Made by a program: the position numbers and the translations under genes. The notes under the pieces were generated by a model that made no database searches, was not told the DNA's origin, and saw only the letters and a list, made by a program, of their open reading frames with translations. Source: Candidatus Peregrinibacteria bacterium (GTDB lineage Bacteria > Patescibacteriota > Gracilibacteria > CAIRYL01). From it: a stretch of 32,000 bases of DNA. Positions 7,152 through 31,000 of the stretch are shown here, one piece after another (position 1 is the stretch's first letter; every line of letters starts with the position of its first letter). Where the stretch lies: contig JACRHZ010000017.1 of NCBI GenBank assembly GCA_016220175.1, positions 25,782 to 57,781 of the forward strand, in the 5' to 3' direction.

Positions 7152-7177
7152 TACGTAAACATTGAATGCACTAAAAA

Positions 7178-7211
7178 GCAGCTTCTTGAGAAATTCAGGA
7201 AGCTGCTTTTT
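7178..7211 (+). terminator. rho-independent terminator after the giant gene
   Basis: gcagcttc (7178-7185) pairs with gaagctgc (7199-7206) and is followed by ttttt. Confidence 0.8.
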
Positions 7212-7275
7212 CAAAATGAGCAGCAAGCTCTTCACTTTTTTGCAGAAATAATGTATAATTGTGGGATACAAAAAA

Positions 7276-10597: not shown

Positions 10598-10639
10598 GGA
10601 AGTAGGAAGTAGGAATTAGGAAGTAGGAAGTAGGAATAT
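10598..10639. repeat. second GGAAGTA heptamer array (6 units)
   Basis: ggaagta ggaagta ggaatta ggaagta ggaagta ggaatat, abutting the flippase start codon (10594, minus strand). Confidence 0.95.
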
Positions 10640-10806
10640 GTTAGTCTTATTTATCATGATCCAATCCTTCTTATTTCCAGGAAAGTGTGCGGGAAAAGGG
10701 GAATTTTTTCAAATACAATAAATACAAGATGGAAAAAATCTGAGGGTTTGCTAGAGTATACTCAAGCTTTTTCATTGTTCTCCACTTTTCATAATCATCA
10801 ATAATA

Positions 10807-11868
10807 ATGGGTCAGTTTTTTACTCTTCCCCCCAGACAGCTTTCGATTTTTCTCGAAAAAGTTCTTGCGAAAGGGCACAGGGTTATTGCCCCTCAAAAAA
10901 AAGGTCTCGTTCGATTTGAAGAATTGCATAATGCAAAAAATCTTTATCTGAAAGAGAACTCCTATTTTCCACTCAAAGAATATTTTTTTGGAAAACACGA
11001 AACTATTTTCGAATACAATAATGCAAAGATTCGTATTCCTAAAATCAAAACGCAACAAAAAATATTTTTTGGGATTCGTAGATGTGATTTGAATGCCATA
11101 GCCCATCAAGATCTCGTATTTCTGAGCGGGAAACATCCCGATCCCTATTACACTGCACGAAGAAAGGGGAGTGTTTTTATCGGATACCATTGCAACACGC
11201 CTCCGAGTAAATATTGTTTTTGTGGCTCGCTCGATCTGGAAGACTTTTACGATATTATGATTTGGAGAAAAAAAGAGTATTTTCTCCTTCACGTTCAAAC
11301 AAAAGCTGGAGAGAAGTTTCTGAAACCATTCCTTTCTCTGTTCAAAAAGAAAAAATATTCACTTACTCAAAAAGACCAAAAAATTCCGGGAACGAATCTC
11401 CTCAAGAAAAAAAATATTCGTAAACTGTATGGGAGTCGTGATTGGGAAAAAGGAGCGGCAATGTGTTTAAGTTGTAGCGCGTGTACTACGCTCTGTCCCA
11501 CGTGTTATTGTCACGAACTCTCGGATATTCCTGATCTTAAAAAATCGGGGACTGGAAAACGAGTTCGGTGTTGGTCTTCTTGCCAGCTGAAGTCATTCAC
11601 GCGTGTTGCGGGGAATCATATTTTTCGAGAAAAACGCGTACAGAGGTTCAAACATCGAATTTATCATCAGCTCGAGTATTTCAAAGAAAAAAATGGGAAG
11701 AATCTCTGTGTTGGATGCGGACGATGCATTTCCGGATGTCCGACGAGAATTGATTTTATTTCTCTTATTAATAGTATGGAGCCATCGAAAAAGAAAATAA
11801 GTCAAAAGATGCAGAAAAAGATTCATAAGAGGTTTCCGGTTTCTGCGTACACGAAGGAGAATTTTTAA
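10807..11868 (+). CDS. hydB: group 3b [NiFe] hydrogenase (sulfhydrogenase-type) beta subunit, 2x[4Fe-4S]
   Basis: Cys clusters CLSCSACTTLCPTCYC and CVGCGRCISGCP. AsrA/HydB-like size (353 aa). First gene of a B-G-D-A ordered cluster. Confidence 0.75.
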   Translation: MGQFFTLPPRQLSIFLEKVLAKGHRVIAPQKKGLVRFEELHNAKNLYLKENSYFPLKEYFFGKHETIFEYNNAKIRIPKIKTQQKIFFGIRRCDLNAIAHQDLVFLSGKHPDPYYTARRKGSVFIGYHCNTPPSKYCFCGSLDLEDFYDIMIWRKKEYFLLHVQTKAGEKFLKPFLSLFKKKKYSLTQKDQKIPGTNLLKKKNIRKLYGSRDWEKGAAMCLSCSACTTLCPTCYCHELSDIPDLKKSGTGKRVRCWSSCQLKSFTRVAGNHIFREKRVQRFKHRIYHQLEYFKEKNGKNLCVGCGRCISGCPTRIDFISLINSMEPSKKKISQKMQKKIHKRFPVSAYTKENF

Positions 11869-11901
11869 TCCAAATTTCTTCATCACAAAAATCTCCACCA
11901 A

Positions 11902-12708
11902 ATGTCACAAAAAAACGCCCTCATCCCTCGGCCCGTAAAAGTTCTCGATGTCTATCATGAATCGCCCGATACGATTACGATCACGCTTGATATGCAAGTG
12001 GATCATGAACCGGGACAATTTATTCAGGTGAGTCTCTTTGGAATTGGAGAGGCTCCAATTTCCATTAGTTCATACTCCAACAAATTTTTAAAAATTAGCG
12101 TTCGTGCCATCGGAAACGTCACCAATGAACTTGCGAAAGTGCAAAAAGGAGATATTCTGCACGTTCGTGGTCCATATGGAAATGGATATCCGCTGAAGGA
12201 ATATTTTGGAAAGAGTATAGTTTTAATTGGTGGGGGATGTGGAGTTGCGCCACTTAAAGGGGCAATTGACTACATTGAAGCGCATCGAGAAAAATTCCAT
12301 GATATCTATCTTTTTCTTGGGTTTCGCGGACCTGCTGATATTCTTTTTAAACGGGAACTCGTCGAATGGAGAAAAAAGTATCACATTGAAACGACAGTGG
12401 AGGAAGTTCCGCAGGGAACTTGTTATACCGGACAAAGCGGATACATCACCAAAGCACTCAGTGCATTTTCCATTTGCGGTCCAGACCGCTTTGTTGTTTT
12501 TATGTGTGGTCCTCCACCAATGATGAACGCATCTGTAAAAATTCTTCGTGAAAAAAAAGTTCCTTTTTCACGAATGTTTGTGAGTACTGAACGACTCATG
12601 TACTGTGCAATCGGGCAATGTTGCCACTGTATGGTTCGAGATAAATTTATCTGTACTGATGGACCGGTGTTTTGCTATGAAGATATCAGGAGAATTAAAT
12701 CCGACTGA
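11902..12708 (+). CDS. hydG: group 3b hydrogenase gamma subunit (PyrK/AsrB-like FAD/NAD(P)H oxidoreductase with [2Fe-2S])
   Basis: Ferredoxin-reductase-like layout: GQFIQV..., VLIGGGCGVAPL nucleotide-binding loop, MCGPPPMM. C-terminal CAIGQCCHCMV...CTDGPVF cysteine cluster. Confidence 0.8.
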   Translation: MSQKNALIPRPVKVLDVYHESPDTITITLDMQVDHEPGQFIQVSLFGIGEAPISISSYSNKFLKISVRAIGNVTNELAKVQKGDILHVRGPYGNGYPLKEYFGKSIVLIGGGCGVAPLKGAIDYIEAHREKFHDIYLFLGFRGPADILFKRELVEWRKKYHIETTVEEVPQGTCYTGQSGYITKALSAFSICGPDRFVVFMCGPPPMMNASVKILREKKVPFSRMFVSTERLMYCAIGQCCHCMVRDKFICTDGPVFCYEDIRRIKSD

Positions 12709-12723
12709 AGTAATTTTTAATTT

Positions 12724-12868
12724 TGTCCCGCATTGCGGGATTAAATTTCTAAATAATTTCTAAATTCTAATTTTTAAAATTTGTTATTGATAATACTCAG
12801 ATATTTCTCATTTAGAAATTAAACATTAAAATTTATTTAAAAATTCGAAATTCGAAATTTAAAATTTT
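12724..12868. repeat. AT-rich palindromic intergenic element, copy A (hydG-hydD spacer)
   Basis: GC hairpin tcccgc-att-gcggga (12726-12740). Left arm ttaaatttctaaataatttctaaattctaatttttaaaa. Unrelated loop. Right arm tttagaaattaaacattaaaatttatttaaaa is roughly the reverse complement. AAATTCG heptamers at 12841-12868. Confidence 0.8.
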
Positions 12869-12888
12869 TCCCCCTCTTCTCCAAACGC

Positions 12889-13647
12889 ATGGAAAAAACG
12901 AAGCTTAAAGTCGGCATCTTCTCTATCACCGGCTGTGCAGGATGTCAGCTCAGCGTGATTTTTAACGAAGATGAACTCTTGCCGCTCTTAAGTCTCATCG
13001 ATCTCCATGCGTTTCCATTTATCAAAAAAGTAAATGCGGAAGAAAATTTTGACTACGTGCTTATGGAAGGCTTAGTGGCAACGAAGGAAGATCTTCAAAA
13101 GCTCAAAAAAATTCGAAAAAATACAAAAAATCTCATTGCCCTTGGAGCATGTGCGCATACAGGATGCATTCCCGCATATCGAAATTTCACACTAAAAAAC
13201 AGATTTAACACTGTATATAACCACACATTGGAAAATATCAGAGGAAACCTCAAAAGCATTTCTCCATCGCCAATAGACGCTCATGTAAAGGTCGATTACA
13301 CCATTCCCGGATGTCCGCCGGATAAAAATGAAATTCTTTCTACGCTTTACAAAATTGCGAATGGTCTTACTCCTCGTCCGTATTCCGAACCGGTTTGCGT
13401 TGAATGTCGAAGAAATGGGAATCCGTGTTTACTCGAATTTGATAAACCATGTCTTGGACCAATAACTCGCGGTGGGTGCAATTCGGTCTGCACGAATTCC
13501 GGATTTGAATGTTGGGGGTGTCGAGGACACACTGATGACGCGAATGAAAAAGTTTTGATCGAATATTTTCGAAAAAAAGGATACTCGAGGAAGTGGATTG
13601 ATGAGAGGATGAAGACGTTTGTGGGGATGAAAATGGGAAAATTTTAA
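12889..13647 (+). CDS. hydD: group 3b [NiFe] hydrogenase small (delta) subunit
   Basis: Proximal-cluster motifs ITGCAGCQ, GACAHTGC, IPGCPP. A Cys-rich distal region follows (CVECRRNGNPC...CLGPITRGGCNSVC...CWGCRG). Confidence 0.85.
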   Translation: MEKTKLKVGIFSITGCAGCQLSVIFNEDELLPLLSLIDLHAFPFIKKVNAEENFDYVLMEGLVATKEDLQKLKKIRKNTKNLIALGACAHTGCIPAYRNFTLKNRFNTVYNHTLENIRGNLKSISPSPIDAHVKVDYTIPGCPPDKNEILSTLYKIANGLTPRPYSEPVCVECRRNGNPCLLEFDKPCLGPITRGGCNSVCTNSGFECWGCRGHTDDANEKVLIEYFRKKGYSRKWIDERMKTFVGMKMGKF

Positions 13648-13800
13648 ATTTTGAAATTCCAAATTTCTAAATAATTTCTAAATCGTAATTTTTAAACAAC
13701 GAAAAAGAAAATTCATGCTGAACAATATGAAATTTTGAAATTAAAAATTAGAAATTAAGATTTATTTAGAAATTTAAAATTTTAAAATTAAAAATTTCTC
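13640..13800. repeat. AT-rich palindromic intergenic element, copy B (hydD-hydA spacer)
   Basis: Left arm aaatttctaaataatttctaaatcgtaatttttaaac. Right arm ttaaaaattagaaattaagatttatttagaaattt is its near reverse complement. RAAATTA heptamers at 13737-13764. Confidence 0.8.
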
Positions 13801-13817
13801 AACATCGTCTAAAATTT

Positions 13818-15098
13818 ATGACACAGACAATTTCTCTCAACCACATCACCAAAATCGAAGGTCATGCTTCGCTCCGTATTGTCGTAGAGAAGGGGAAAGT
13901 AAAAAAATGTAACCTTTCTTCCGTAGAAGGTGCGCGATATTTTGAAGAACTTCTGATCGGAAGAGATTATACCGAAGCATTTGAACTCACTTCTCGAATT
14001 TGTGGAATTTGCAGTTCTGCTCATGTGATTTGTTCTATCACTGCTGTGGAAAATGCGCTTGGAATGAAAGCATCTGAACAAACCCTCAGACTTCGCGAAC
14101 TCTTAACACTCGGCGAAAGGATTCGCAGTCATGCGACGCATCTTTATTTTCTCGCACTTCCAGACTATCTCGGATATGAGTCCGCAATGGCAATGATTCC
14201 AAAATACACAAAAGAAATTGAACGGGCGCTTCGGCTCATGAAAATAGGAAATCTCATCGTCAAAATAATTGGGGGGAGAGATCTTCATCCGGTTTCAGCC
14301 CACGTTGGTGGATTTTCTTCATTCCCGAGAGAAGAAGAAATCCAAAACTGCCAAAAAGAACTTCAAAGTGTCCTCAAAGATGCGATTAAAACTGCAAAGC
14401 TTTTTATGAAACTCAAATTTCAGAAGTTTGAACGTGAAATTGAAATGTTTTCGCTCACAGATTCAAAAGGATACGCAATGCTTCATGGGGATCTTACTTC
14501 CGGAAAACATGTCTATAAACAATCAGAATTTGAAAAATATTTTTCGGAATTTCACGAGCCGCATTCCACGTCGAAATTTGCGCTGAAAGAAGGCAAAGAA
14601 TACAGGGTTGGAGCGCTTTCGCGGCTGAATCATAATTCAGAGCAGCTTTTTCCCTACGCAAAAAAAATGCTGAAAAAATCCAAACTTCGCCTTCCATCAT
14701 ATAATCCGTTTTTGAACAATCTCGCTCAAGCGATTGAACTTGTTCATGCGATCGAACATGCGATTCACATTTTTTCGAGTCTGAAAATTCGATCAGAAAA
14801 AATTCGAAAGCCAGTTCTTAAAAAATCATGTAAAGGAATTGCGGGAATTGAAGTTCCGCGCGGAATTTTGTGGCATGAATATGAGTTTAATGCCAAAGGG
14901 AAAATTACCAAAGCGAACATCATTACTCCCACAAGCCAAAATGTAAGAGCAATTCAAGAGGATATCAGAACATTTCTTCCAACGGTTCTTCATCTTTCCA
15001 GACCAGAAATCGAACTCGAAATAGAAAAACTTATTCGCTCGTATGATCCGTGCTTTTCCTGTTCAACGCATTTTTTGGATGTGAAGTGGGAAGAGTAA
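13818..15098 (+). CDS. hydA: group 3b [NiFe] hydrogenase large (alpha) catalytic subunit
   Basis: N-terminal NiFe ligand motif RICGICSSAH. C-terminal DPCFSCSTH followed by an 8-aa tail (FLDVKWEE) of the kind removed by a maturation endopeptidase. Confidence 0.9.
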   Translation: MTQTISLNHITKIEGHASLRIVVEKGKVKKCNLSSVEGARYFEELLIGRDYTEAFELTSRICGICSSAHVICSITAVENALGMKASEQTLRLRELLTLGERIRSHATHLYFLALPDYLGYESAMAMIPKYTKEIERALRLMKIGNLIVKIIGGRDLHPVSAHVGGFSSFPREEEIQNCQKELQSVLKDAIKTAKLFMKLKFQKFEREIEMFSLTDSKGYAMLHGDLTSGKHVYKQSEFEKYFSEFHEPHSTSKFALKEGKEYRVGALSRLNHNSEQLFPYAKKMLKKSKLRLPSYNPFLNNLAQAIELVHAIEHAIHIFSSLKIRSEKIRKPVLKKSCKGIAGIEVPRGILWHEYEFNAKGKITKANIITPTSQNVRAIQEDIRTFLPTVLHLSRPEIELEIEKLIRSYDPCFSCSTHFLDVKWEE

Positions 15099-18763: not shown

Positions 18764-18840
18764 AGGAGGGAGAAAAAAAGAGAAAAAATATAAAAGATTG
18801 TTCACGAAAGGGAGATATTTACTGAGAGGAAATTTTGAAT

Positions 18841-18898
18841 TTTGTCTGGCATTGCGGGATTAAATTTTTAATAAATTCCAATCTCTAATTTTTAAAAT
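18841..18898. repeat. AT-rich element, copy C (half element, copZ-copA spacer)
   Basis: tttgtctggcattgcgggattaaatttttaataaattccaatctctaatttttaaaatac aligns along its length with 12722-12783 of copy A at roughly 80% identity by eye. It has the same plus-strand orientation although the flanking genes are on the minus strand. Confidence 0.75.
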
Positions 18899-19139: not shown

Positions 19140-19154
19140 ACCATTACCTATGGT
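19140..19154. promoter_or_regulatory. putative CsoR operator upstream of copZ-copA
   Basis: ACCATTACCTATGGT, identical to 21255-21269. Contains the palindrome TACC-TAT-GGT. It lies 34 bp upstream of the copZ start. Confidence 0.5.
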
Positions 19155-19215
19155 GGAGGTTGTTAAAAATGTAAAAAAATAAAGAACTGCATTTCTCTAA
19201 AATACAAGCGTTCTT

Positions 19216-20963: not shown

Positions 20964-21230
20964 TTATTTACTAAAAAGTTTTGTTACTTGAAGTATTTCT
21001 TCAATCATTTTCTCCTTCTTGTCGACTCTATTTGACTGCATTGCATGACTAAAACAACTCTTGAGATGACCTTCCATCAGCATTTGGTGGGCTGATTTGA
21101 GGAGACCAATCACCGCAAGGTTTTGTTGCATAATGTCTATGCAATATGCGTCATCTTCTATCATCGACATAATCTTTTCTAAGTGACTTTTCGCTTTTTT
21201 AAAATTGATAATGACTTTTTCGTTATGCAT
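20964..21230 (-). CDS. csoR: CsoR/RcnR-family metal-sensing repressor (copper-type C-H-C ligands)
   Basis: 88 aa all-helical protein. KKAKSHLEKIMSMIEDDAYCIDIMQQ...HLKSC fits the CsoR x-C-H-C pattern. Heads the copper cluster. Confidence 0.85.
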   Translation of the reverse strand: MHNEKVIINFKKAKSHLEKIMSMIEDDAYCIDIMQQNLAVIGLLKSAHQMLMEGHLKSCFSHAMQSNRVDKKEKMIEEILQVTKLFSK

Positions 21231-21254
21231 AAGGAAAAAAGAAAGGGGATTTAC

Positions 21255-21269
21255 ACCATTACCTATGGT
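21255..21269. promoter_or_regulatory. putative CsoR operator (autoregulatory) upstream of csoR
   Basis: ACCATTACCTATGGT with the full palindrome TACCTATGGTA (21260-21270). It lies just downstream of the candidate -10. Confidence 0.5.
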
Positions 21270-21731: not shown

Positions 21732-23030
21732 ATGAGAGAACTTTCGCCTTTCACGCATCCATTTCGAGGGAAAATTTCAGTTCCCGGCTCAAAGTCTCTT
21801 ACCAATAGAGCGCTCCTTCTCGCTGCTCTCGCTCCAGGGCAAACAATCTTGAAAGAATGGCTTTCCAGTGAAGATACAGAGGTGATGATAACCGCACTCC
21901 GAGAATTTGGTGTGGATATATATTTTGAGGGAAAAGAAAGGGAACTTACAATTGTTGGCACTTCTGGAAAATTTCAAAATAAAAGCGATCTAGAGATTTT
22001 TTGTGCAAATTCTGGAACATCACTTCGCTTTCTCACCGCAGTTTCTGCGCTTCGAAGTGGAAAAACTCTTCTCACCGGAGCACCTCGCATGAAAAAAAGA
22101 CCGCTTCGTGATCTTTCGGATGCGCTTTCACAAATGGGGGTTCTCCTGAATTATCCGGAAAAAAAAGGGTTTCCTCCCATACAAATTTTAGGAAATCAAG
22201 TCCTTCAGGGAGGAGATATTCACATCTCTGGAAAAACTTCTTCACAGTTTCTGAGTGCGCTCCTTCATATTGCTCCATTCGCTGGAAACCCAGTTCGCAT
22301 TACTTTGAAAAATGAACTGGTTTCTGAGCTATATGTTCGCATGACAATTGGACTCCTTGAAAAATTTGGAGTACATGTGCGTCAGAATGAGAGGAGTACT
22401 GAATTCTGTATTGACCCTCAGCCACTTTCTTCCCCAGGCGAGGTTCATATCGAAGGCGATGCTACCTCAGCCACATATCCACTCGGAATCGCACTCGCAA
22501 CTCAGGGGAGTATTATTGTACAAAATATTTGTTCAAACTCGCTACAGGGAGATGCATATTTTCCCGAAAAAGTTCTCAAAAAAATGGGAGCAATGGTTCA
22601 AATGTCTTCTGACGGGATTTTTCTCACTGCACCTCAGAATCTTCTCCCGCTTGACGATATTCATCTCGGAGAAATGCCAGATGCCGCTATGACGGCAGTT
22701 GTACTTTCTGCGCTTGCAAAAGGAGTTTCTCGAATTTCTGGGCTTTCCACCCTTCGTGATAAAGAGTGTGATCGAATCTCTGCACTTGTTTCGAACTTAG
22801 CGAGCATGGGAGCCAATGTTCTTTCGGGAAAAGATTTTATTGAGGTTCATGGTGATCCACTTGAGCTTCATGGGGCAGAAATTGAAACATTTCATGATCA
22901 TCGTATCGCGATGTGTTTCTCGATCTTGGGAGCTGTAATTCCTGACGTCCGAATTCTCCATCCCGAATGTGTGGAGAAGACCTATCCCACATATTGGCAG
23001 GAGTATGAGGAATGGAGGGGGCAATTTTAA
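21732..23030 (+). CDS. aroA: 3-phosphoshikimate 1-carboxyvinyltransferase (EPSP synthase, class I-like)
   Basis: VPGSKSLTNRALLLAALA N-terminal motif. 432 aa, with LRDKECDRI and HDHRIAMCFSILG near the C-terminus. Confidence 0.92.
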   Translation: MRELSPFTHPFRGKISVPGSKSLTNRALLLAALAPGQTILKEWLSSEDTEVMITALREFGVDIYFEGKERELTIVGTSGKFQNKSDLEIFCANSGTSLRFLTAVSALRSGKTLLTGAPRMKKRPLRDLSDALSQMGVLLNYPEKKGFPPIQILGNQVLQGGDIHISGKTSSQFLSALLHIAPFAGNPVRITLKNELVSELYVRMTIGLLEKFGVHVRQNERSTEFCIDPQPLSSPGEVHIEGDATSATYPLGIALATQGSIIVQNICSNSLQGDAYFPEKVLKKMGAMVQMSSDGIFLTAPQNLLPLDDIHLGEMPDAAMTAVVLSALAKGVSRISGLSTLRDKECDRISALVSNLASMGANVLSGKDFIEVHGDPLELHGAEIETFHDHRIAMCFSILGAVIPDVRILHPECVEKTYPTYWQEYEEWRGQF

Positions 23031-23060
23031 ATTTTGAAATTTAAAATTAAAAAGCAAATT
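23023..23060. repeat. AT-rich element fragment, copy D (aroA-aroK spacer)
   Basis: Shares the 19-mer aattttaaattttgaaatt with 13640-13658, then aaaattaaaaagcaaatttct. Confidence 0.5.
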
Positions 23061-23086
23061 TCTTCTCAGTTTAAACAACTACGAAT

Positions 23087-23650
23087 ATGTCTCGCAACAT
23101 TGTTTTCACCGGCATGAGAGGAAGTGGAAAGTCTCATTTTGGGAGCGAATTTGCGAAAAAAAATTGGTATAGGTTTGTTGATACCGATCAGGAAATAGAA
23201 AAGAGAGCAGGAAAAAAAATCGCGGAAATCGTTGCACAAAATGGCTGGGGCACATTTCGAAAAATGGAATACGATGTCTGCAAAGAACTTTCTTCCGTGG
23301 AAAACACGATCATTTCTGTTGGTGGAGGAACAGTGATGCAGAAAGAAAATGTTGAACTTCTCAAAAAAAATTCAATTTTTGTTTTCCTCTACGCTCCGCC
23401 TAAAGAGCTCTTTCGAAGGCTGGAAAAATCAAAACATAAGAGACCGCCCTTAAGGAAAGGACTTTCCCTTCGTGAAGAAATTCAGGTTATTTGGCAAGAG
23501 AGAAGAGCCACTTTCTTTGAAACTGCAGATTTTGTGTTTTGCTTTTTGTTTTTTTCTTCTGATCCGAGAGAGAATGTGTCCAAAAATGTAGGAGTTCTCC
23601 AAAGGCTTGTGGATAGTATTTTTCATAAAAATATGGTAAAATATAGATAG
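23087..23650 (+). CDS. aroK: shikimate kinase
   Basis: Walker A GMRGSGKS, then FVDTDQEIE and VGGGTV motifs. Directly downstream of aroA. Confidence 0.85.
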   Translation: MSRNIVFTGMRGSGKSHFGSEFAKKNWYRFVDTDQEIEKRAGKKIAEIVAQNGWGTFRKMEYDVCKELSSVENTIISVGGGTVMQKENVELLKKNSIFVFLYAPPKELFRRLEKSKHKRPPLRKGLSLREEIQVIWQERRATFFETADFVFCFLFFSSDPRENVSKNVGVLQRLVDSIFHKNMVKYR

Positions 23651-30261: not shown

Positions 30262-30420
30262 TTAGAAATTTTGAATTCTTAATTTTGAATTTTGAATTAA
30301 ATTCTAATTTCTAATGTTTAAACACAAGGTGTAAACTGGTGAAAAATGGAATGCTTAAAAATTAAGATTTAAAATTTATTTAAAAAATTCAAAACTCAAA
30401 ATTTATAATTCAAAATTTTT
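30262..30420. repeat. AT-rich palindromic intergenic element, copy E (dut-PBP spacer)
   Basis: Left arm TTTTGAA/TTCTTAA heptamers (30269-30296) plus aaattctaatttctaat. Right arm cttaaaaattaagatttaaaatttatttaaaa plus AAAATTC-type heptamers (30384-30418). The outer ~35 nt of the arms are near-complementary. Confidence 0.8.
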
Positions 30421-30861: not shown

Positions 30862-30914
30862 TTTCTCTTAAAAATAAAAAACTGCAGGACGCAGTATAGC
30901 AGAAATCAATGACG

Positions 30915-31000
30915 AAAAAGTACAAAATTAAAAGTACAAAGTACAAAATATGAAATCCTTTTTTAAGTTTTGTACTTTGTGCTTTGTACTTTGTACTTTT
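30915..31000. repeat. long imperfect palindrome built from AGTACAA / CTTTGTA heptamers
   Basis: Left arm aaaagtacaaaattaaaagtacaaagtacaaaat. Right arm gttttgtactttgtgctttgtactttgtactttt. Loop of about 17 nt. It starts immediately after the stop codon of the SLH/sortase-like gene (minus strand) and probably acts as its terminator. Confidence 0.85.

Follow-up and report, generated by a model that had tools for sequence, protein, structure and literature searches.

To our knowledge, the intervening sequences (IVSs) of ribosomal RNA (rRNA) genes have been known since 1990, but we know of no explanation of their origin and mobility, nor of a function for the S23p, or four-helix-bundle, protein. 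In Coxiella, the IVS of the 23S gene has terminal inverted repeats, contains an S23p open reading frame (ORF), varies among strains in the number of tandem heptamers, and is cut out by RNase III (PMC4990558). In the rRNA genes of the candidate phyla radiation (CPR, or Patescibacteria), too, short insertions of an uncharacterised kind and 23S_rRNA_IVP ORFs are found (PMC11270868). Here, a 32,000-nucleotide stretch of DNA from a Candidatus Peregrinibacteria bacterium (contig JACRHZ010000017.1; hereafter, the window) was analysed, whose gene spacers harbor copies of an AT-rich palindromic element. The closest known kind of element is the rRNA IVS, with or without an S23p/four-helix-bundle ORF, rather than a repetitive extragenic palindromic (REP) sequence or a classical miniature inverted-repeat transposable element (MITE). 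The family probably represents a non-coding, IVS-type, MITE-like palindromic insertion element, which does not serve as a terminator or as a required regulatory site and whose stem would be cut by RNase III when it is co-transcribed with its neighbours.

The arms of the element were modelled with a profile hidden Markov model (HMM) trained on 119 arms from other genomes, the window being left out. The nhmmer search with this model disclosed seven significant arms in the window, forming three complete palindromes (copies A, B, and E) and one half copy (C) (Table 1). A preliminary description of this DNA had counted a fifth copy, D; this fragment, which is not significant, aligns with nothing but the model's outer heptamers and is therefore indistinguishable from simple AT-rich heptamer sequence, and its membership of the family is doubtful. 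The 20-nt core quoted in that description is exact in A and B and not in the other copies; its remaining statements on the copies were borne out, i.e., the central loops of A, B, and E are mutually unrelated, a GC mini-hairpin (degenerate in C) is located at the identical position within the arm in A and C, and all five sites lie between co-directional genes (5/5).

The 28-nt module TAAATAAWT-N9-TAATTTTTAA, which is common to the seven window arms aligned in register, occurs six times at no more than one mismatch in the five window spacers, against 0.0005 occurrences expected under a first-order Markov null of the same AT-rich spacers; none of 2000 simulations reached six. The similarity among the copies thus goes beyond what low-complexity AT-rich sequence would yield. 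It has to be considered whether these copies are locally evolved AT-rich hairpins, i.e., intrinsic terminators or attenuators, resembling each other by low-complexity convergence. They are indeed intergenic and AT-rich (78–84% AT in the spacers with complete copies, 66% in that of the half copy C), the number of outer heptamers varies, and heptamer slippage can make such sequence. They are also predicted to fold into hairpins more stable than shuffled controls, with energies from -24 to -32 kcal/mol (z from -2.6 to -6.4; copy E, on its transcribed strand, -31.9 kcal/mol, z -6.4) and arms that are 72–91% complementary over 33–59 nt (82% across 57 nt in copy B; 91% in the outer 33-nt inverted repeat of copy E, 30266–30298/30386–30418). 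However, the module matches exceed the composition-matched null about 10,000-fold, and at least about 53 genomes have this consensus, down to specific C positions. A terminator role is excluded because copies are located within an operon and in rRNA genes, the polarity is opposite to a terminator's (whichever strand is read, the U-rich arm precedes the A-rich one), a terminator scan predicts no terminator-like site in the elements, and ordinary GC-stem terminators exist elsewhere in the genome (e.g., 7165–7222 and 30881–30895). A local origin of the hairpins is, on the whole, very improbable. When the whole window was compared with Rfam (E ≤ 1), no family matched at the elements.

The distribution of the family was assessed with a degenerate arm pattern of 34 nt, run against a single representative genome of each species; at least 120 loci were retrieved. 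The full architecture is present at a minimum of 108 loci in at least about 53 Patescibacteria metagenome-assembled genomes (MAGs) belonging to many lineages, labelled, among the matches listed, as Moran-, Falkow-, Kuenen-, Peri(grini)-, Gracili-, Sacchari-, Zambryskii-, Kaiser-, Pacei-, and Parcubacteria, Altimarinota, and "Patescibacteria". Twelve listed matches fall in non-CPR or unplaced genomes (methanogens, Flavobacteriia, Clostridia, and others); all of them (12/12) lack the heptamer flanks and the partner arm, and are therefore chance matches. Some MAGs bearing the element carry the labels "uncultured Gammaproteobacteria" or "Bdellovibrionales"; in the largest MAG mislabelled in this way ("Gammaproteobacteria"), the protein homologues are from Parcubacteria or Falkowbacteria, and the 23S rRNA of another oddly labelled MAG is as distant from that of E. 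coli as a bona fide CPR 23S rRNA is. In the viral contigs of IMG/VR, three matches were found, all in AT-rich contigs without a palindrome; they are chance matches, and nothing therefore points to carriage by phages. Copy number varies in a very patchy manner from genome to genome: seven arms are present in the 32-kb window, compared with a single arm in 152 kb from nine other CPR genomes picked by protein homology and not by the repeat, and a second element occurs, among the matches listed, in 18 of the 117 pattern-selected 8-kb loci. DNA uptake sequences were rejected as a candidate, the density being too low, the location exclusively intergenic, and the unit too long. In the searchable literature, no published description of the arm consensus, or of its dispersal between protein-coding genes, was found.

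On either strand, the element reads 5'-(AATTTTN)n-TAAATAAWT-CTTAAATCT-TAATTTTTAA-[0 to ~45 nt]-TTAAAAATTA...ATTTATTTA-(NAAAATT)n-3', in which the N9 stretch is CTTAAATCT-like. The arms, of about 55 nt each, are inverted copies of one consensus, and the outer ends of the inverted repeat are 94–251 bp apart (median 134) in the loci listed. In very many cases the ends are exactly AATTTTTAATTTT...AAAATTAAAAATT, and the outer heptamers vary in number; the terminus of copy A, AATTTTTAATTTT, is typical in this respect. The AA within the N9 stretch is kept in 93–95% of the arms even though it was not fixed by the search pattern, and the partner arm, which the pattern did not select, yields the same consensus. 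The polarity is fixed, with the T-rich arm first: among the matches listed, the partner is located downstream in 81 of the 112 pattern arms and upstream in one, while 31 have no partner, 12 of these being the chance matches outside Patescibacteria. As for the neighbouring genes, again among the matches listed, the pattern arm is oriented with co-directional neighbours in 48 cases and against them in 39, without strand preference, so that the claim that orientation is independent of transcription holds; eight further elements lie between divergent genes and five between convergent genes. The elements fill nearly the whole gap from the stop codon to the short leader of the next gene. An imperfect palindrome after the stop codon of co-directional cassettes is also the mark of integron attC sites, which have a GTTRRRY core; these were rejected, as there is no cassette array and no such core, and the neighbours are housekeeping genes.

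In about half of the complete elements the loop is absent. This bears on the possibility that the element is the guide-RNA stem-loop unit of a TIGR-Tas-like or CRISPR-like system. TIGR stem-loop arrays do occur in CPR, with variable palindromic stems around a loop, and are arranged as a tandem array beside a Tas (Nop-domain) gene, with loops holding two spacers flanked by box C/D motifs (PMC12045711). In the present family the situation is the opposite, since the arms are conserved and the loops variable or missing; moreover, the copies do not form arrays but stand singly, scattered between housekeeping genes, and the window lacks Tas/Nop-domain and cas genes, which makes this interpretation extremely improbable.

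The strongest evidence for insertion comes from the copies in rRNA genes, where the ancestral state is unambiguous. In the 16S gene of a Gracilibacteria locus (L075; Rfam RF00177), hairpin loops of three and two model positions are replaced by family elements of 144 and 150 nt, and in the 23S gene of another locus (L024; RF02541), a six-position loop has become 128 nt containing a family element. In the latter gene (minus strand, 1100–1979), the first 500 nt hold three loop-replacing insertions of 111, 129, and 128 nt; the third alone is an AT-family element, the other two being clusters of short GC hairpins. A second line of evidence is provided by the group-3b-type NiFe hydrogenase operon of the window (four genes, 10807–15098, + strand), whose nearest counterparts, in the relatives L122 and L123, encode HydD proteins 69% and 74% identical to that of the window. 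The hydG-hydD and hydD-hydA junctions measure 10 and 34 nt in L122 and are overlapping in L123, and they measure 180 and 170 nt in the window, almost wholly consisting of the element; the pyrimidine-rich short leader of L122 persists to the right of copy A. Empty sites in relatives, whose existence the preliminary description had left to be checked, are therefore available at these two junctions, and A and B were inserted into an ancestrally tight operon. Taken together, these data show a discrete palindromic unit inserted at many unrelated sites, in both orientations, at positions where a hairpin does no harm, such as helix tips and the spacers behind stop codons, and sometimes with one arm only.

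Genome-specific subfamilies exist that have whole loops in common (four JAHIOZ loci and two CAYFOO loci), which implies the copying of the complete unit. GC mini-hairpins interrupt or flank arms not only in the window (12725–12741), but also beside the rRNA copies of L024 and L075 and in the JAHITL MAG; TCCCGC-loop-GCGGGA hairpins resembling that of copy A interrupt arms in the L089 and JAHITL loci. Three paralogous element-plus-flank copies of JAHITL (L029, L037, and L085) differ by a 21-nt GC hairpin, CACCGCAAAAGCGGGACAGGT, which is located in the left arm in one copy and in the mirror position of the right arm in the second, and is absent from the third. On the basis of this presence/absence pattern, the mini-hairpin seems to be a separately inserted unit targeting TTTTT^AATTTT. 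A second GC-palindrome family, GTCATTCC[C/G]G...GGAATCC(AG), recurs in CPR loci (L025 7207 and 7259, L031 3004, L006 7469, L070 3261, L109 7158, L023, and L083), sometimes nested at the centre of the AT element; we take its form to resemble the Neisseria dRS3 repeat ATTCCC-N8-GGGAAT.

The relationship between the two arms of a copy is informative as to how the palindrome is maintained. When HMM-registered arms were compared over all model columns, an arm matched its own partner at 72.1% and swapped partners at 73.8%; in the variable columns the values were 47.5% and 51.1%, and all 500 permutations (500/500) equalled or exceeded the observed value. The arms of one copy thus fit each other no better than unrelated arms, so that the palindromy comes from the shared consensus and, given the lack of arm-arm covariation, not from selection for pairing or from hairpin-templated homogenisation. 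The alignment of 46 loop-less elements with MAFFT and RNAalifold was of low complexity, and no structure was obtained from it. At free positions, the identity between arms is 67.6% within a genome and 59.5% between genomes; the consensus is kept across many Patescibacteria lineages although copies within a genome have already diverged. Since each arm is conserved independently, a sequence-specific factor acting during the spread can be suggested.

The same figures might be read differently, i.e., as those of a selected, non-mobile functional motif, such as an array to which a conserved CPR protein binds or a punctuation mark for RNA processing between cistrons, kept by purifying selection. That the consensus is preserved almost as well across phyla as inside a single genome, that each arm follows it independently of its partner, that the gap from stop codon to leader is filled so exactly, and that neither a target-site duplication nor a transposase was found would all agree with such a motif. 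It is at odds, on the other hand, with the orthologous hydrogenase junctions of the relatives, which have no element, with the scarcity of arms in the nine other CPR genomes, and with the copies in rRNA hairpin loops, where there is no cistron boundary. The frequent solo arms (31/112 among the matches listed, the 12 chance matches included), the subfamilies with whole loops in common, and the gene cargo of some copies also speak against it. Overall, we regard a non-mobile motif as unlikely. A promoter role for the right arms is neither supported nor excluded: in a sigma-70 scan, outward TTTAAA-N18-TAAAAT-type matches in these arms were not above shuffled sequence (7 versus 4.0 ± 2.2, and 3 versus 2.8 ± 1.5).

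As concerns the mobilising machinery, no transposase gene is present among the proteins encoded by the 32-kb window, in agreement with the preliminary description. A further explanation is that the family is of REP/REPIN type (REPINs being REP doublets that form hairpins) and is moved by a single-copy REP-associated tyrosine transposase (RAYT, an IS200-like Y1 transposase) encoded elsewhere in each genome. Like REPINs, the elements consist of inverted copies of one repeat around a short spacer, are extragenic, show no target-site duplication, and often occur as singlets (PMC3116915). Nevertheless, REPs are 20–40 nt long and GC-rich with a conserved tetranucleotide head, whereas the arms described here are of about 55 nt, almost pure AT, and heptamer-built; no Y1 transposase is encoded in the window or beside the elements examined, and the only recurrent cargo is a four-helix-bundle gene. 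A RAYT-driven spread is therefore quite improbable. The proposal of a dispersed REP/MITE-like element, made in place of a local terminator, can be kept as far as dispersal, insertion, and the lack of a terminator role are concerned; REP features are wanting and two MITE hallmarks are missing. Among the loci examined, no transposase-encoding parent with the same ends was found, the sole cargo between arms being the four-helix-bundle gene; a composite transposase-bearing unit suspected between distant arms in L099 was rejected, since only ordinary genes (a transporter and a glycosidase) are present there.

This cargo was disclosed both in the complete Altimarinota chromosome L005 (1.37 Mb) and in L081; in each, a small gene matching PF05635 (23S_rRNA_IVP) and TIGR02436 (four helix bundle protein) is embedded between family arms. 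The encoded protein has one sequence match among solved structures, the uncharacterised protein 2rld. In an independent metagenome sample of 80 four-helix-bundle genes, 73 of which could be evaluated for arms, family arms adjoin 19 of the 73, mostly those encoding the proteins closest to the query. Moreover, 96% are located between long heptamer-type inverted repeats of several sequence variants, and none of the 80 cassettes lies in an rRNA gene. In other repeat families flanking four-helix-bundle genes the A-rich arm comes first, unlike the T-rich-first AT family. The window itself contains, at 30916–31000, between a sortase-like gene and the dUTPase gene, a palindrome with 40-nt arms of AAAGTAC/CAAAGTA heptamers (-36.8 kcal/mol, z -5.5); its A-rich arm comes first, as in the CAAAT/CAAAG-type arms that flank the four-helix-bundle genes of L172 and L152, and it may be a member of a family that is sister to the AT element.

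A resemblance exists between PF05635 proteins and Avd, an accessory protein of diversity-generating retroelements (PMC10053308). It can be tentatively proposed, as a speculative possibility, that the AT-arm palindromes are the non-autonomous form, and the arm-flanked PF05635 genes the autonomous form, of one undescribed class of mobile elements, in which copying would be promoted by the Avd-like/S23p protein upon its recognition of the heptamer arms, possibly via an RNase III-excised RNA and a reverse transcriptase acting in trans. If this were true, the classical rRNA IVSs, the abundant genes annotated as "four helix bundle protein", and the intergenic palindromes of CPR would share an origin and a mechanism.

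Whatever the enzyme, the element would spread via a sequence-specific machinery recognising its arms, for which the four-helix-bundle protein is the sole recurrent candidate. The insertions would survive only where a long AU-rich transcript hairpin is harmless, i.e., at the tips of rRNA helices and in the spacers between a stop codon and a leader, the element being tolerated because it folds into such a hairpin. Since copies are found inside rRNA genes and an operon, we infer that transcription has to pass through them. In the resulting RNA, a mismatched AU stem of about 50 bp would form, which, by analogy with IVSs, is probably cut by RNase III; the cleavage would excise the insert from the pre-rRNA and sever polycistronic mRNAs such as hydG|hydD|hydA.

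Several observations weigh against an IVS-type mobile element. Target-site duplications, which the preliminary description had indicated as something to look for, are not detectable: the mean best flanking direct repeat is 1.42 nt at own flanks and 1.66 ± 0.16 nt with shuffled partners, the AT-rich and variable termini limiting the resolution. No mobilising enzyme was found in the window or in the element neighbourhoods examined, and the four-helix-bundle gene is absent from the window. No empty/filled polymorphism between close strains was seen, the nearest relatives being just 69–74% identical in HydD. Only two of the approximately 108 sampled elements (among the matches listed) are in rRNA genes. 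Copies within a genome are scarcely more alike than copies of different phyla, which is odd for a recently active selfish element and could reflect purifying selection on a function. Finally, both RNase III cleavage and transcription through the elements are deduced, the former from the likeness to IVSs and the latter from the position of the copies. Two further contigs, L208 and L209, considered as closer relatives because of histidine kinases 80% identical to that of L060, are not syntenic at the element and contain no arms. The spacer behind the same response-regulator gene is wholly different in L060 (1–480, minus strand), where it holds an AATAAGA-heptamer palindrome, and in L208 (5494–5961), where it consists of 467 nt with GTCATTC-type repeats; both genomes are Parcubacteria-like, and the difference suggests a fast intergenic turnover in them.

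Table 1. Copies of the AT-rich palindromic element in the window and their parts (E-values from nhmmer with the arm HMM).
Feature	Position	Strand	E-value	Remarks
Copy A, complete palindrome	12710–12867			
Copy A, outer heptamers of left arm (GTAATTTTTAATTTT)	12710–12724			Begin 2 nt past the hydG stop codon (12706–12708)
Copy A, GC mini-hairpin GTCCCGCATTGCGGGAT	12725–12741			Within the left arm
Copy A, left-arm inner module	12741–12779	+	1e-7	Exact pattern match, TAAATAATT-N9-TAATTTTTAA, at 12750–12777
Copy A, central loop	12780–12810			Unrelated to the loops of B and E
Copy A, right arm	12811–12867	-	1.4e-7	Stops ~20 nt short of the hydD start codon (12889); pyrimidine-rich leader left intact
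Copy B, left arm	13635–13698	+	2.6e-10	hydD stop codon (13645–13647) falls in its first heptamers
Copy B, central loop	13699–13740			
Copy B, right arm	13741–13800	-	7e-9	Stops 17 nt before the hydA start codon (13818)
Copy C, solo arm (half element)	18826–18897	+		No partner arm; ~20 nt upstream of the start of a minus-strand P-type ATPase gene
Copy C, outer heptamers	18826–18843			
Copy C, degenerate mini-hairpin GTCTGGCATTGCGGGAT	18844–18860			
Copy C, inner module	18860–18897	+	2.3e-5	
Fragment D (AATTTTAAATTTTGAAATTTAAAATTAAAAA), family membership doubtful	23023–23060		3.4 and 12	Outer-heptamer-like sequence only; between aroA and aroK
Copy E, complete element	30262–30420			Between the dUTPase stop codon (30421) and the penicillin-binding protein start codon (30229)
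Copy E, left arm	30267–30324	+	5e-4	
Copy E, loop	30325–30351			
Copy E, right arm	30352–30409	-	5e-9	

The genes surrounding these copies are ordinary bacterial ones, including those for seryl- and asparaginyl-tRNA synthetases (the latter, AsnRS), aroA, aroK, a penicillin-binding protein, a dUTPase, SLH-domain proteins, and a copper ATPase with csoR. Every named best homologue of AsnRS is from Patescibacteria, with an identity not exceeding 70%, so that the window comes from a CPR bacterium with no close sequenced relative. The aroA and aroK genes are separate in the window (21732–23650), with a 56-nt spacer containing fragment D, and form one fused gene of 623 aa in L211 (Altimarinota chromosome OZ252287, 14090–15961), whose region is otherwise syntenic with the window (AsnRS, phosphorylase, and aroA/aroK). 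No Shine-Dalgarno-like GGAGG is present in the 40 nt upstream of any start codon among the 20 called genes; the leaders are pyrimidine-rich, with CTCC/TCTCC/CCTTTC motifs, and the same leader type (cccttccctcATG) is found in L122. The 15-nt palindrome-like sequence ACCATTACCTATGGT occurs twice, upstream of the copper ATPase/HMA-cupredoxin genes and upstream of csoR (20964–21230), at ~19141–19155 and ~21253–21267, and is probably a CsoR operator. Tandem GGAAGTA/GGAATAA heptamer arrays are located at 401–560 and 10598–10640; the latter adjoins the start codon of a minus-strand flippase gene, where it reads (CCTACTT)n-CCCCC-ATG. A separate AGCGAAG/TAGCTCT heptamer palindrome lies at ~485–560.

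The picture that emerges is that one type of element, with one arm consensus, populates gene spacers and operons across many Patescibacteria lineages, and that relatives of it with flanking arms bear the gene of the IVS protein, in most cases outside rRNA. This connects IVSs, the four-helix-bundle "IVS protein", and the intergenic repeats of CPR, and opens questions on the origin of IVSs, the role of the four-helix-bundle protein, and the cutting of operon transcripts in CPR to existing genomes and metatranscriptomes. From a practical viewpoint, the arm model offers an inexpensive way of marking CPR contigs and flags a cause of assembly breaks and of shifts in gene boundaries, as for the hydD stop codon within copy B.

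The Correia elements of Neisseria are MITEs of about 100–160 bp that are co-transcribed with their neighbours and whose mRNA hairpins RNase III can cut. The AT element resembles this type in having a similar size (~100–160 bp) and terminal inverted repeats, in being non-coding, and in its dispersal between genes in either orientation. As in MITEs in general, multiple dispersed copies exist, with presence/absence at orthologous sites (the hydrogenase junctions, empty in L122 and L123, and the ancestrally short rRNA loops). It differs from Correia-type elements in that no target-site duplication, of TA or any other sequence, was detected and no transposase-bearing autonomous relative is known, as well as in its arms, which are heptamer arrays of variable length, and in its range, which spans many Patescibacteria lineages and not a single genus. 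The heptamer repeats of cyanobacteria (short tandemly repeated repetitive sequences, STRRs) and the small dispersed repeats nested in them, reportedly described by Mazel in 1990 and by Elhai in 2008, are similar in that intergenic tandem heptamers form hairpins and very small GC hairpins are inserted (compare 12725–12741 and the present/absent polymorphism of JAHITL). The host phylum and the sequences are different, STRRs are not one defined palindrome with a conserved inner module, and we know of no link between them and rRNA or the four-helix-bundle gene.

With REPs and REPINs (PMC3116915), the family shares the extragenic inverted doublets forming hairpins, the singlets as decay products, the lack of target-site duplications, and a consensus maintained across related genomes; it differs from them in its AT-only, heptamer-built arms of ~55 nt without a GTAG-type head, in that no RAYT was seen in the window, and in its presence inside rRNA genes and its four-helix-bundle cargo. 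The comparison with the IVSs of Salmonella, Leptospira, and Coxiella (PMC4990558) reveals differences too, since most copies, including those at all five window sites, lie between protein-coding genes and not in rRNA, several to many copies occur per genome, one arm consensus is common to many Patescibacteria lineages, and RNase III processing, documented for the Coxiella IVS, is suggested here by analogy. The likeness is nonetheless the closest of all: the terminal inverted repeats pair into a long stem, family members take the place of terminal loops at the tips of rRNA helices (two in the 16S gene of L075 and one in the 23S gene of L024), no transposase is known, the number of heptamers varies as in Coxiella, and the centre may be occupied by a PF05635/S23p four-helix-bundle ORF.

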